UHGV virus genome: UHGV-0183426
Length of the DNA stretch: 53,584 bases
Direction: 5' to 3' (one strand)
From: a virus
The notes beneath the pieces are model-generated. The model was not told the origin of the DNA. It worked only from the letters and a program-made list of their open reading frames with translations, and did not search any database. Made by a program: the position numbers and the translations under genes. Below, one piece after another: positions 18,632-35,128 of this stretch. How positions within the stretch are numbered: position 1 is the stretch's first letter; every line of letters begins with the position of its first letter.

Positions 18632-19291
18632 ATGAATAAACTAAAAGCAATTGGCGTGATTAGCCATCGCACTAACCCTGAATGTTACCCATCGTTTGAG
18701 GTAACAACATGCCGCACAGAATATAATTTTGGATCATACTATTTATTGGGTGTCCGCGCTGACACTGGCGGCACTTATTCGGTTATGGCTGCAAGCTGGA
18801 AATTTGATAAATACGCTAATTTATCGAATAAGGATGATGACGGCATGAATAAAGAAAGTGAAATCATTGATGAATTAATCGAAGATGAACGCCATGATTG
18901 CGAAACACAACAAGAAAAAACAGAATGGAAGCCAGGAGAAAAGCCGCCGTGCGGCGTGTGGCTTGATTGTTATTATCCTGATGGCTATTACATTGGGATT
19001 GTAATGTTTAAGTTTATCGGTGATAAATACGGGGTATACACAGAAAAAGGCAGTATACAGAAAGAAAATGCTATTGAATGGGGTTTTTATAATTATTATT
19101 TATACGTTGATCCGAAAGAAAAAGCACTGGCGCAAATTGCGTTTGCTCTGGCTACGAAGGTTATTGGTGAGGATGCGGCAGGAGAAATAAATTTCAATCG
19201 TGATAATGATTATTCGCGTGATTATCGCAATATGGCACAAGCTATTATTGACGGATGTATCGGACACGTTGAATACACGGGAGGTAAATAA
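18632..19291 (+). CDS. hypothetical protein
   Basis: ORF track 18617..19291; start set at the Met preceded by GAGGA. Confidence 0.45.
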   Translation: MNKLKAIGVISHRTNPECYPSFEVTTCRTEYNFGSYYLLGVRADTGGTYSVMAASWKFDKYANLSNKDDDGMNKESEIIDELIEDERHDCETQQEKTEWKPGEKPPCGVWLDCYYPDGYYIGIVMFKFIGDKYGVYTEKGSIQKENAIEWGFYNYYLYVDPKEKALAQIAFALATKVIGEDAAGEINFNRDNDYSRDYRNMAQAIIDGCIGHVEYTGGK

Positions 19292-19521
19292 TGGATAAAA
19301 CAGGGACAATCCTTCTTAGTCGCCCTGCCATCTGCCGGATGCTTGGTGGAATTAGCAGGGGAACATTTTATTTATGGCGTAAAAAATGGGAACGGAACGG
19401 AACTCCGTTCCCCGACCCGGTTGATGTACTTGGTAACGGTCGTGGCGTTATGTACCGCTATCAGGACGTAATGCAGTTCTTTGATCAGATTGGTTTAACG
19501 TCAGCCAAAGATAATACATAA
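19291..19521 (+). CDS. AlpA/excisionase-like small DNA-binding protein
   Basis: 76 aa; RPAICRMLGGISRGTFYLWRKK...FPDPV pattern typical of AlpA/Xis-type HTH proteins. Confidence 0.5.
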   Translation: MDKTGTILLSRPAICRMLGGISRGTFYLWRKKWERNGTPFPDPVDVLGNGRGVMYRYQDVMQFFDQIGLTSAKDNT

Positions 19522-20114
19522 TCAGCAAACTTATTTAGCGCCTCCTTTTGTTCGTCAAGATAATCGTATTTATCGTACACCGCCAGTATTCCCCTTAATG
19601 AATGGCCTAAGATCTTTTCCGCAATATGTACCGGAACACCTATAGCTGAAAGGTGTGTCCGGCACGTCCTGCGGAGGTCGTGACAGGACCATGATTTACC
19701 GCCCATCCTTTTACGCACGAAGATTGCGGCTACTTTTATCACCGATGCGTTTACTGGCCTGTTACCGCCGTTAATCACTGGCGGGAACACGTAATCATAC
19801 TCATGGGAGGATAACACCTCCCTGAGCATTTTTATCGACAAATCTGATAATCCCCGCCTGATTTCACTTCTTGTCTTCGCCACCGCTGCCGGGACGGTCC
19901 ACACCCCGTTATCCAGGTCGAGGTGCTCCCTTCTCATTTTCTGCAACTCCCCCACCCTGCACCCGGTGAGCAATAATAGCTTTAATGCTATCTTGTTCTG
20001 ACGGTAGATCTGCGAATCATCCACCGTTCGCCAGAAATGGCCTATTTCATCGCATGATAAATAACGCTCGCCAACCGCATAATTTTCGCCAACGTCAATA
20101 ACCCTGATATTGTT
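19485..20114 (-). pseudogene. int: tyrosine integrase remnant (catalytic domain only)
   Basis: contains LLLLTGCRVGEL (R), HDLRRTCRTHL (HxxR), LGHSLRGILAVYDKYDY (Y); frame is closed by a stop about 30 codons upstream of the GTG start and nothing upstream encodes the N-terminal domains. Confidence 0.65.
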
Positions 20115-20219
20115 TATCGCTGGAATGATTAGCGCAACGAATAATCATTTATAAAACAGCACATTACATTATTTTTGTTTTTGATTTTTGATATTTGGTC
20201 ACAATTTGGTACACAAAAA

Positions 20220-20243
20220 GAAACGAGGCGTTAGCCTCGTTTC
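20220..20243 (-). terminator. hairpin GAAACGAGGC-GTTA-GCCTCGTTTC, end of the late operon
   Basis: perfect 10-bp stem followed by T-run on the minus strand. Confidence 0.5.
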
Positions 20244-20286
20244 GCGGCGATGTCTTCAACATCACCATGCTGTTACTATCGCACCA

Positions 20287-20571
20287 TCAAGCCCACACGC
20301 GGACGCCTGGATCTGGAACGATGAATTTTTCCAGCGGCGACAAATCAACATCGTCACCAGTTATGCGCATGTTGACATAATAGCATTTTTTCTCAATCAG
20401 TACAGGCGTCTCGCTTTCTGGATCATCGAATACAAGAACAAAACCTATATCATCGACAAATACGGTAGACCAGTTGGCATCCAGCCATCCGCTATTAATC
20501 ACAATGTCGTTGTATTGCTGTTTATCAGTAAATTGCAAGCTAACATCTTTCATATTCACCACCTTAAACAA
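20287..20571 (-). CDS. hypothetical protein (possible tail fiber assembly/accessory protein)
   Basis: 94 aa, immediately downstream of and overlapping the tail fiber gene; function inferred from position only. Confidence 0.35.
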   Translation of the reverse strand: MFKVVNMKDVSLQFTDKQQYNDIVINSGWLDANWSTVFVDDIGFVLVFDDPESETPVLIEKKCYYVNMRITGDDVDLSPLEKFIVPDPGVRVWA

Positions 20572-22360
20572 TCTCGCTCATTTGCGCATCGGTTAATGCT
20601 TTGTGCCATACCCTGAAATTTCTAATATGTCCAAAAAGATGTCGCTCCCCTGCTGTTGTTTGACCGCCGAAACGGAATATTGCTGCGTTAGATATATATC
20701 TCCATGTTGTTTTTGCTTCGCTTGATATGCGTCCATTACTGACACAACATGTATCATAGGTGCTTTTAACCCTCATACCGATAATCATTTTTTGTAGTGA
20801 TGCGTTTTCGTTAACGCGCCTGTTTGACTCACCAATATCGCAATAAGGAAATCCGTCGTATTCTTTCGACGACCCAAAAGCAAGGATCATAGCCGCGCCA
20901 CTCTGATGACCTCCTGTGTCAAAAACACGCGTTGCTGCATTTGGCGTTTTATACCAATTTTTATGCGCCTCGCAAAGAATAGTAAATGGTGCACCATAAA
21001 GGTTATTTTTCATCGTGACCGATACCATGTCACTTGCGCGCGTTGTTGCTGTTTCCGCAGTGATAATAAACGAAGAAGCACACGCGCCACCTTCTACTTG
21101 AGGGGTTGAAACATATATATAATCGTCAACACCAGTGCTTCCACCCACAGGTGGAGCATATTGCACCATTGCACCGATCATATTTTCTGTATCAAGTGCC
21201 TTAATTGTTGCTTCAAAGAAGATCCATTCACTTGCTTCATCTTTAACAGCTTTTGCAGTAATACGATCTGATGCAACGCCTGTCTTACTAATAGATAAAT
21301 CTGTCAAATTCACGTATGCGTCACCAAGAAAAGTGTAGCCAGATTCACCATATTCCTCAAATCTCAAGCAGCATCTTATGTTTGGAGTGCCACTTTGTAC
21401 CCTGCATGATGCTGTTACATACTTTTCACCGCCTGTTACATCAAAACCTTTATTGCCACTAACGGTTACTATGTTAATCGCTGAAGTTTGCCCTACCATT
21501 GTTTCTTTTAATGTGAATTTTCCGTAAGTGAAGCCAAAATTATCCACTCCTGATGTATTTAAAATCATATTTGATGATTTGTTCCACTTTGAAGGGTCTA
21601 TACTGTTTATTAACAGGTTTGTACGCGTCCCCTCAATCAGCAATCCTTCGCGTTCAAAACGTGGCTCATTAATACCAGCCACAGTTAAAACACCTGATTT
21701 ATTAATGTAAGTAGCCGTGCTTGCGCGTGAGAAAGAAACAACCTTATCTGATGGTATTGTTTTTTCTTCCTCATCAATGGTTACTTTTTTAGTGCCAGGG
21801 CCGTATCCAGTGATCATATCAAGTGAATCATTAAACGGTATCCATACGTCCGGCAGTGGCTGCAAAACATATGCGTAAGGCTGCGCAGTCTGATTGGCGT
21901 ATTCGTGTGCCTCATCTCTGTATTTCTTTGCTGAATCAGCTGCGGTTGTCGCTGTTTTTGCTGCGTTAGTTGCAGTGGTAGCTGATTGTGACGCTAATTT
22001 TGAGGCTGAAATCACATCTTTGTTGTCGCTGAAAAATTCGACGGCGTCAGCTATTTCTGATTCCTTGCCCTGATAGTAACGCAGTGTTTCGGCAACATCC
22101 TGAGCAAGACCATCCACAGAGATCGAATCTGAAAGCAGGATGCTAAATTTAGTTCCAGCCGGAATAGCCGGACTTGCCGCCGGAGTTACCGACAAACTTG
22201 TTGCGCTTTTTACCTCTGTGATTGAAAAAATCTGCACAGGATCGCTAATAGCAATAAGAGTGCAACCCACTCTGATCAGAGATAATGCGGCGTTGAATTC
22301 AGTCCCCGTTCCGGTAACTGTTTTTCCGCTAACGGCTATCGTGCCTGTTGTGTAAATCAT
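20564..22360 (-). CDS. side tail fiber protein with lectin-like C-terminal domain
   Basis: 598 aa; Ala/Thr-rich shaft, C-terminus ends with a LamG/concanavalin-like signature (RNFRVWHKALTDAQMSEI). Confidence 0.65.
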   Translation of the reverse strand: MIYTTGTIAVSGKTVTGTGTEFNAALSLIRVGCTLIAISDPVQIFSITEVKSATSLSVTPAASPAIPAGTKFSILLSDSISVDGLAQDVAETLRYYQGKESEIADAVEFFSDNKDVISASKLASQSATTATNAAKTATTAADSAKKYRDEAHEYANQTAQPYAYVLQPLPDVWIPFNDSLDMITGYGPGTKKVTIDEEEKTIPSDKVVSFSRASTATYINKSGVLTVAGINEPRFEREGLLIEGTRTNLLINSIDPSKWNKSSNMILNTSGVDNFGFTYGKFTLKETMVGQTSAINIVTVSGNKGFDVTGGEKYVTASCRVQSGTPNIRCCLRFEEYGESGYTFLGDAYVNLTDLSISKTGVASDRITAKAVKDEASEWIFFEATIKALDTENMIGAMVQYAPPVGGSTGVDDYIYVSTPQVEGGACASSFIITAETATTRASDMVSVTMKNNLYGAPFTILCEAHKNWYKTPNAATRVFDTGGHQSGAAMILAFGSSKEYDGFPYCDIGESNRRVNENASLQKMIIGMRVKSTYDTCCVSNGRISSEAKTTWRYISNAAIFRFGGQTTAGERHLFGHIRNFRVWHKALTDAQMSEIV

Positions 22361-34083: not shown

Positions 34084-34743
34084 ATGAAACGGTTAGCAAA
34101 AGTGGCAATGATTGCGGCGGTATTGGGTCTGGTTGGTTGCAATGAGGATAATGAAAAAGCGCCTATAGTGACCAATCAAGAACAACAAGCATTAGCAGAG
34201 AAAAATGCTAAATGGCTTGCAGAACAACAAGCAAAACAAGCCGCATACGATGCACAGTTAGAAAAAGAAAATGCTGGTAAACAGTGGCTTGTAGTTGAAA
34301 GAAAAGATGATATGCAGGACGCAAAAAACGTATTCCTTTTTGTGAAAGCAGAACAATTCAGCGGAAGTCTTGATGCTTTCCCGACACTGAAGGCACAGGA
34401 TAAGAATAAACCGGTATTAACAATCGCTTGCCAGGGTAATAAAACAAAAATGTTCGTAGCATGGTCACACCATGTAACTGACGCCGGGGACACTACTTAT
34501 ATTAACTACCGGATCGGCGTTCACAAAGCTGTAGCTACTGAGTGGGGGCGGTCAACTAATTATAAAGCTCTTGGATTATGGGATGGCAAAAAAGCCATCC
34601 CAATGATTAAAAAAATGGTTAACGAAAAACAATTCATCATTGAAGTAGTGCCGGAAGCTGGCGACATTGAGAAAGCAGTGTTTAACATTGATGGTCTTTA
34701 TAACCACATCGACAAAGTGAAAAACGCTTGCAACTGGAATTAA
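34084..34743 (+). CDS. lipoprotein (219 aa), moron
   Basis: signal peptide with lipobox LGLVGC; AT-rich; opposite strand to the tail genes. Confidence 0.6.
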   Translation: MKRLAKVAMIAAVLGLVGCNEDNEKAPIVTNQEQQALAEKNAKWLAEQQAKQAAYDAQLEKENAGKQWLVVERKDDMQDAKNVFLFVKAEQFSGSLDAFPTLKAQDKNKPVLTIACQGNKTKMFVAWSHHVTDAGDTTYINYRIGVHKAVATEWGRSTNYKALGLWDGKKAIPMIKKMVNEKQFIIEVVPEAGDIEKAVFNIDGLYNHIDKVKNACNWN

Positions 34744-34753
34744 GGGGTAAATC

Positions 34754-35128
34754 ATGAAAAACATAATCAAAGCGGCTCTCATTGGTGTTATGGCTTTAGC
34801 TCTTACAGGGTGCGCAAGATCAACTGATTTCGTTAAGTTAGCTGATAAAAAATTGCAAGTTGGAATGACTTGTGAGCAAGTGAATAAAATAATGGGGGAA
34901 CCACAAAGAATCGAGCATGACGGTAATTATAGTTATCACGTATGGTATTCAGTAACCAGCACGATAGGATTTACTTACATGGATGTTGAAGAATTATCCC
35001 CTTCAAGGGTTATCGCAAAGTTTGATAACTGCATCCTAAAAGAATGGAAAGATCGCAGTAAGGCAAAGTCTGTATACAATACAATCACACACAGTTCACC
35101 AGGTACAGCAATTAAAGATTTCAATTAG
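34754..35128 (+). CDS. lipoprotein, BamE/SmpA-OmlA-like (124 aa), moron
   Basis: lipobox LALTGC; ...LQVGMTCEQVNKIMGEPQ... pattern reminiscent of the OmlA/BamE fold. Confidence 0.5.
   Translation: MKNIIKAALIGVMALALTGCARSTDFVKLADKKLQVGMTCEQVNKIMGEPQRIEHDGNYSYHVWYSVTSTIGFTYMDVEELSPSRVIAKFDNCILKEWKDRSKAKSVYNTITHSSPGTAIKDFN

Follow-up and report, generated by a model that had tools for sequence, protein, structure and literature searches.

The 53,584-nt stretch of DNA analysed here (hereafter the window) very probably represents a mEp021-like phage that a single deletion of about 735 bp in the integration module has left integration-defective. The missing segment comprises 4 nt of the att core, the whole P arm, the ribosome-binding site of int and integrase codons 1-185, and it is present in every type-I relative examined (eight phage-form contigs, 19 Escherichia coli prophages and three isolated phages). 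A preliminary description of this DNA had offered an integration-defective derivative and a deletion at attP as separate possibilities. Compared with the attP, attB, attL and attR sites of relatives, on which the deletion reading is based, the two would be one event, running from the core to codon 186.

Genome and relatives

The window aligned to mEp021 (MH706966) by blastn in collinear blocks of 72-95% identity over nearly its full length, in reverse orientation. Because of this collinearity, because both ends map to neighbouring mEp021 positions (~22,330) and because the 53,584 nt contain no terminal repeat, we take the window to be a complete, circularly permuted genome of the mEp021-like group of mEpimmI coliphages, which are described as temperate and Nus-dependent (PMC11893012). 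It is in phage form, with host DNA absent from its flanks. Genome-wide synteny with mEp021 is accompanied by the same immunity region (10296-12173, 92.4% identical to that of mEp021 by blastn), as expected of a member of the mEpimmI group, and the phage is accordingly assignable to mEpimmI with an integrase of type I. Whole-genome nucleotide identity to the type I mEpimmI phages mEp021, mEp554 and mEp515 is 82-93%. These three are the closest phages, at ~90% identity, and the closest prophages, which occur in 35 of 5426 complete E. coli genomes, are also ~90% identical; the collections searched did not include the genome itself.

Two parts of the tail region stand apart from mEp021. The distal tail-fibre gene (598 aa) and a small PHROG 1361 gene, together at 20287-22360 on the minus strand, are unlike the tail-tip genes of mEp021 and share ~75% DNA identity with tail-fibre genes of the virulent T1-/T5-like coliphages AV105, swan01, tuinn and VSe12. 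This module, which the PAR prophage also carries, appears to be a mosaic exchange between temperate and virulent phages. Farther along, two plus-strand genes at 34084-35128 lie inside the minus-strand tail region and have no DNA match in mEp021. One encodes 219 aa and has a domain resembling VasI of type VI secretion (PF11319, E=1.4e-15), the other encodes 124 aa and matches DUF7738 and BamE weakly, below threshold (E ~4e-4), and the pair look like a moron cassette.

Attachment site and deletion junction

The att anatomy of the group was worked out from five kinds of site: attB, attL (junctions L004, L007 and L009), attR (junctions L005 and L008), the attP of mEp021, built by joining the end of its record to the start, and eight phage-form contigs of metagenome and viral origin. 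The core common to them is CTGTCTGGA (9 bp, in window-plus orientation), which lies inside dgcM; an empty attB inside the 5' end of dgcM was found in 5368 of 5426 E. coli genomes. The core position obtained by comparison agrees with published work in which PCR verified that mEp021 inserts into ydaM/dgcM in its 5' region (PMC11893012), and the target of the window phage would likewise be the 5' end of this gene.

Intact attP sites run in the order tail operon, terminator, P' arm, core, P arm, and ribosome-binding site and start of int. The P' arm is AT-rich and ~95 bp long, and the P arm (~175 bp) carries TGAACG-type repeats together with the second, int-proximal copy of an 18-nt motif, GGTCACNATTTGGTACAC. 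One copy of this motif occurs per arm, in direct orientation and exactly 241 bp from the other, in 9 of 9 intact attPs examined (for example at 11715 and 11956 of L041, at 3144 and 3385 of L027, and in the mEp021 attP). The copy before the core is 160 nt from it and the copy after it 81 nt, and at these distances the motif was rejected as a candidate for the core itself. Since the terminator-proximal copy is also kept in loci with other att and integrase types, and since the N-terminal domain of Int is conserved across integrase types (PMC11893012), the motif is probably an arm-type Int binding site. The comparison thus defines a type-I attP anatomy for the mEpimmI group (core, P arm repeats and two motifs spaced by 241 bp) that appears to go beyond the detail given in PMC11893012.

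Two further observations concern att regions elsewhere in the group. At loci L021, L037 and L043 (contigs of 51,636 and 40,933 bp) an integrase of another type (MLTDTKLRNIHGKPYDGPEE...) abuts the 18-nt motif and the terminator, with no att region in between; either attP is located at the int start or spans it, or recombination between the two motif copies removed what lay between them. Locus L004 (E. coli MLI107, NZ_CP116987 2,532,9xx) has a type-I attL consisting of the dgcM 5' end, the core and a type-I P' arm, and its prophage was assigned a type-II integrase, with a host deletion of >7 kb noted (PMC11893012). This arrangement is consistent with deletion or recombination, either between the att regions of dgcM and abgT or between two prophages in tandem.

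In the window, the stretch at 20121-20221 has 26.7% G+C, against 45.7% for the window as a whole. The preliminary description had placed an AT-rich, att-like segment with TTTTTG repeats here, between the integrase remnant and the late-operon terminator, and both its position and its att-like nature are upheld by comparison with relatives, which identifies it as the phage's own P' arm of attP (20125-20219, with approximate limits of 20123-20219). The arm is collinear with the mEp021 P' arm and with prophage attL junctions, and is 84-95% identical to those of relatives, the best being strain PAR (95.3%). As in a functional attP, it lies between the core and the tail-operon terminator. It contains an inverted repeat, AATGATTA/TAATCATT (20124-20131 and 20142-20149), three TTTTTG units (20172-20177, 20178-20183 and 20185-20190) and the 18-nt motif as GGTCACAATTTGGTACAC (20197-20214), the only copy in the window, where intact attPs have two. 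The tract also matches the E. coli chromosome beside zntB/ynaN, which gave rise to the idea that it was host DNA acquired by aberrant excision in the manner of lambda gal/bio phages. This idea was rejected because the boundary between host and phage is the core in dgcM, the tract lies on the phage side of it, and it is part of mEp021 virion DNA.

The tail (late) operon ends beyond the P' arm in a strong intrinsic terminator (20220-20243, minus strand), GAAACGAGGC-TAAC-GCCTCGTTTC followed by TTTTTGTGTA, with a 10-bp stem, a 4-nt loop and a T-run. It is conserved in mEp021 as well as in 37 metagenome and viral loci. The last gene of the operon (20287-20571, minus strand; 94 aa, PHROG 1361) forms the tail-side border of the att region.

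Followed from the tail side, the P' arm enters the core and ends after CTGGA (20120-20124), the residual half of a core that reads CTGT-CTG-GA in full; the next base belongs to integrase codon 186. Integrase-derived DNA therefore lies to the left of the junction and attP-derived DNA to the right, and the sequence across 20110-20133 is ...TTGTTTATCG-CTG-GAATGATTAGCGC..., where CTG (20120-20122) marks the junction and is common to a site inside the integrase gene and to the second half of the att core. At this internal site the closest int alleles (mEp554 and STEC308) read TTTATCG-CTG-TACTGG, giving the 3-nt overlap CTG; with a parent allele of the mEp021 type the overlap would be only 1 nt. All eight independent phage-form contigs with intact attP align on both sides of 20120 and carry 722-736 extra bp there. 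Homology starts at 20120 in 10 of 10 type-I attL junctions (37 loci) and in 22 of the 35 E. coli prophage matches. Two elements of a functional attP, a P arm and a complete core identical to attB in dgcM, are lacking, the whole 9-mer being absent from both strands of the window. No exact match to the junction was found in the viral, genome and metagenome collections, nor did the exact protein of 179 aa encoded by the remnant have a match in the collections searched.

How the deletion arose is a separate matter. Its att-side endpoint falls after the fifth base of the 9-bp core, and an endpoint within the core is what an Int-promoted deletion predicts. Under such a mechanism, a core-like sequence lying within int would serve Int as a secondary site for recombination with the att core, and the P arm and the N-terminal half of Int would be excised. 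The exchange could have been intramolecular, within attP on a free genome, or could have involved attL and the secondary site as the prophage of a lysogen excised; the retained CTGGA is compatible with both routes and does not tell them apart. Compared in the register of the junction, the integrase-side site and the attP core region share 11 of 19, 13 of 23 and 14 of 27 positions. The similarity of the 19-mer is reached by 0.38% of genome positions and by 5 of 1331 positions in int and the P arm, which suggests, without proving, that the att core paired with a secondary att-like site.

The deletion could equally be real and independent of the integrase, a microhomology join by replication slippage or end joining at CTG that ended in the core by chance. 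Several features are consistent with such a join. The junction identity is only 1-3 nt, and the product misfits a simple conservative exchange: any 7-bp overlap placed inside the identity block mixes the parents, with CG from int and GA from attP, and would need mismatch correction, so that the exchange would not have been a clean conservative one if the overlap lay wholly within the 9-bp block. Similarity of the integrase-side site to the core in a gapped alignment is not significant, as 2% of positions score equally. The junction is also unique across the collections searched, where a favoured secondary site would predict recurrence, and the chromosomal scar that an aberrant excision should leave as its reciprocal product was searched for and not found. 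Against a chance join stand the location of one endpoint within the 9-bp core of an att region of ~450 bp, the rarity of the in-register, core-like similarity at the other endpoint, and the precedent of lambda, in which deletions ending at att are classically Int-dependent. We would place the integrase-independent join only a little short of an even chance. That the integrase destroyed its own gene by recombining the att core with an internal core-like site is a tentative proposal, which we rate slightly lower still, and the choice between the two origins stands at roughly even odds. If the internal site CTGTACTGG found in mEp554/STEC308-type alleles is indeed preferred by the integrase, variants of this kind should recur in type-I mEpimmI populations, and the reaction would offer a natural one-step route from a temperate gut phage to a permanently non-integrating one.

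An assembly or sequencing artefact, in which the true attP-int region is intact and the contig has collapsed or derives from a rare chimeric molecule, would explain why the deletion is seen in one sequence only, but is improbable. The flanks keep their native order and orientation, and the rest of the window is fully collinear with relatives. CTG is the sole sequence shared at the join and is far too short for a k-mer misjoin, and the nearest true repeat, the 18-nt motif, lies away from the junction.

Integrase remnant and probable loss of integration

What is left of the integrase gene begins, as an open reading frame, with a GTG at 20022-20024 and encodes 179 aa (19485-20024, minus strand). 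The product scores 77.2 bits against Pfam Phage_integrase PF00589 (curated cut-off 27.1; E=1.7e-21; profile positions 20-166 of 172) and matches PHROG 1 'integrase' with E=1.2e-39. The R-K-H-x-x-R-H/W-Y set of tyrosine recombinases is complete, with R23, K50, H115, R118, H141 and Y150 in the numbering of the 179-aa frame, located through a HMMER alignment to XerA 4A8E and counted by hand. The preliminary description was right in recognizing a catalytic domain with its R, HxxR and Y residues, but its size of about 180 codons was too small: homology to full-length integrases extends past the GTG to 20120 and leaves 212 homologous codons, so that the remnant with its start-less homologous part occupies 19485-20119 (about 20120; minus strand), from Int codon 186 to the C-terminus and the stop at 19485-19487. 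In tblastn, residues 186-404 of mEp021 Int align to window 20120-19464 at 97.7% identity. The proposed alignment with full-length integrases thus located the break at codon 186, window position 20120. Integrases of relatives are 404 aa long in mEp021, mEp554 and STEC308 and 396 aa in PAR.

Residues 1-185 have no tblastn counterpart in the 53,584-bp window (the best match outside the remnant has E=1.8), in agreement with the earlier statement that the N-terminal domains are encoded nowhere upstream; nor did tblastn reveal an upstream exon or a split gene in the window. The arm-binding (N-terminal) and core-binding (central) domains of a lambda-Int-like heterobivalent integrase are thus absent. 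Upstream of the GTG, the frame continues without a start for 40 codons (20025-20144, minus strand) and not for about 30 as first described, although the closing stop had been correctly seen (TGA, 20145-20147). The first eight codons of this extension (LFVALIIP) derive from P' arm and core DNA, and the extension has neither a canonical start codon nor a Shine-Dalgarno sequence. The GTG itself is preceded by no Shine-Dalgarno sequence, consensus scans found no promoter-like site on the minus strand between the GTG and the terminator (20024 to 20220), and the tail-operon terminator lies directly upstream.

The remnant is 96.5% identical in nucleotide sequence to int of the STEC308 prophage, with 17 synonymous and 4 non-synonymous changes across the 212 codons that remain. 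The reference comparison between two intact genes, mEp554 and STEC308, gives 29 and 5. The substitutions in the remnant resemble those between intact genes and carry no sign of decay, and the attP/int deletion therefore appears to be recent. We infer that the remnant is a recent pseudogene and not a working minimal recombinase.

Two leads were rejected. The early stop (...VKPI*) is not pseudogene decay, as the full-length PAR Int stops at the same place. A metagenome 'integrase' of 150 aa (P0002, 99% identical) is not a second truncated copy but a contig-end product: its contig of 53,857 bp overlaps itself by 136 nt at the ends, carries attP and int intact, and is a circular sequence linearised inside int. 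Contigs L010, L011 and L012, from different samples (one from JGI, two from ENA), all start within 2 nt of one another inside int, at a position equivalent to window ~19938-19940, just before an internal ATG. The start of the JGI contig is the break of a circular assembly with the 136-nt overlap, and the break shared by the ENA contigs may reflect a boundary between mosaic segments at which assembly graphs split.

At its 3' end, int overlaps by 37 nt (19485-19521) with a convergent, intact gene for a 76-aa HTH protein (19291-19521, plus strand). This gene adjoins int in mEp021 too, and its product is a candidate excision/directionality factor. A terminator-like hairpin on the minus strand (19388-19412; 11-bp stem, then a T-run) lies ~75 nt downstream of the int stop, antisense within the HTH gene, in an arrangement kept in mEp021. 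The 3' overlap and the hairpin may permit antisense or retro-regulation of int.

The complete set of catalytic residues and a frame free of internal damage would also suit a remnant that works as a stand-alone recombinase, or that is complemented by the N-terminal half of Int from a resident prophage, so that the phage still integrates. The isolated catalytic domain of lambda Int does keep weak cleavage and topoisomerase activity. The remnant, however, has no core- or arm-binding domains, no start linked to a Shine-Dalgarno sequence and no promoter, and stands directly behind a terminator. Its substrate went with the att core and the P arm, and a recent deletion is enough to explain the intact frame; continued integration is thus highly unlikely. 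Least credible of all is that the short form is ancestral or reflects a module swap, in which a block of tail-fibre genes and P' arm was imported and the missing segment was never present. In its favour, the adjacent tail-fibre genes are unlike those of mEp021 and closer to those of virulent T1-like phages. The P' arm, however, is a normal type-I arm, 95% identical to that of PAR, a strain that combines these tail genes with a full-length int; the 735 bp are present in all type-I relatives examined; and half a core joined to half a gene cannot have been a working ancestral form.

With a deletion as the preferred reading, site-specific integration and excision have almost certainly been lost, because Int has no arm- or core-binding domain and attP has lost half of its core and the P arm. 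Int supplied in trans should not rescue integration, since attP too is broken. An intact CI-like repressor is encoded (11227-11874, with complete HTH_3 and Peptidase_S24 domains). The expected phenotype is a plaque-forming phage that gives only abortive or unstable lysogens, except where it recombines into a resident related prophage. Persistence without integration, which had been put forward earlier, gained nothing from the comparison: mEp021 is collinear and integrates, and the ORFs of segments that are not collinear with it include no second integrase or other recombinase, no partition gene and no protelomerase, so that we see no support for a plasmid-like state.

In annotation, the gene should be entered as an integrase pseudogene, in a genome classed as an attP/int deletion derivative; to call the phage 'temperate, integrating' from its Pfam integrase match would be wrong. 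The genome would represent a natural, one-step loss of lysogenic capacity in a recently described and prevalent group of gut coliphages, and the breakpoint inside the att core is a testable hint that the integrase may itself cause such losses.

Comparison with known systems

Lambda provides the classical counterpart. Parkinson, and Davis and Parkinson in 1971, reportedly described lambda mutants with att deletions, such as b2, and deletions promoted by Int that have att as one endpoint. Like the att-deletion mutants, the window represents a viable phage in which a deletion starts in the core and removes one arm, and the phage would likewise be integration-defective and plaque-forming. The origin proposed here, recombination between att and a secondary site inside the phage, is that of the Int-promoted deletions. 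Unlike the window phage, the lambda mutants were selected in the laboratory; b2 spares int, whereas the deletion in the window enters int, and its dependence on Int is only proposed.

A second parallel is HK022, whose Int rearranged the prophage by recombining att with a secondary attachment site that the prophage itself carries (Dorgai et al. 1993, as cited in PMC6379469). In both cases, by proposal for the window, the integrase acts on att and a core-like site within its own genome. The HK022 event was an inversion in a lysogen, whereas that in the window would be a deletion on a genome in free, circular form. The same review describes 'grounded' or cryptic prophages, in which the integrase is truncated or an att site has been resected (PMC6379469), and these resemble the window in having lost integrase or att function by deletion. 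A grounded prophage is trapped in the chromosome, whereas the window is in phage form with the P' arm joined to int, and the effect is the opposite one: the phage cannot enter.

Integrase genes are reported for 48 of 48 mEpimmI genomes analysed, and no truncated one is described (Front Microbiol 2025, PMC11893012). Like the type I (Ia/Ib) modules of mEp021, mEp554 and mEp515, the window has an Int catalytic domain, a P' arm, the terminator and the 18-nt motif, and unlike them it lacks residues 1-185 of Int, the P arm and 4 nt of the att core. From its sequence, we regard it as a natural derivative of a known phage group, formed by deletion in attP and int.
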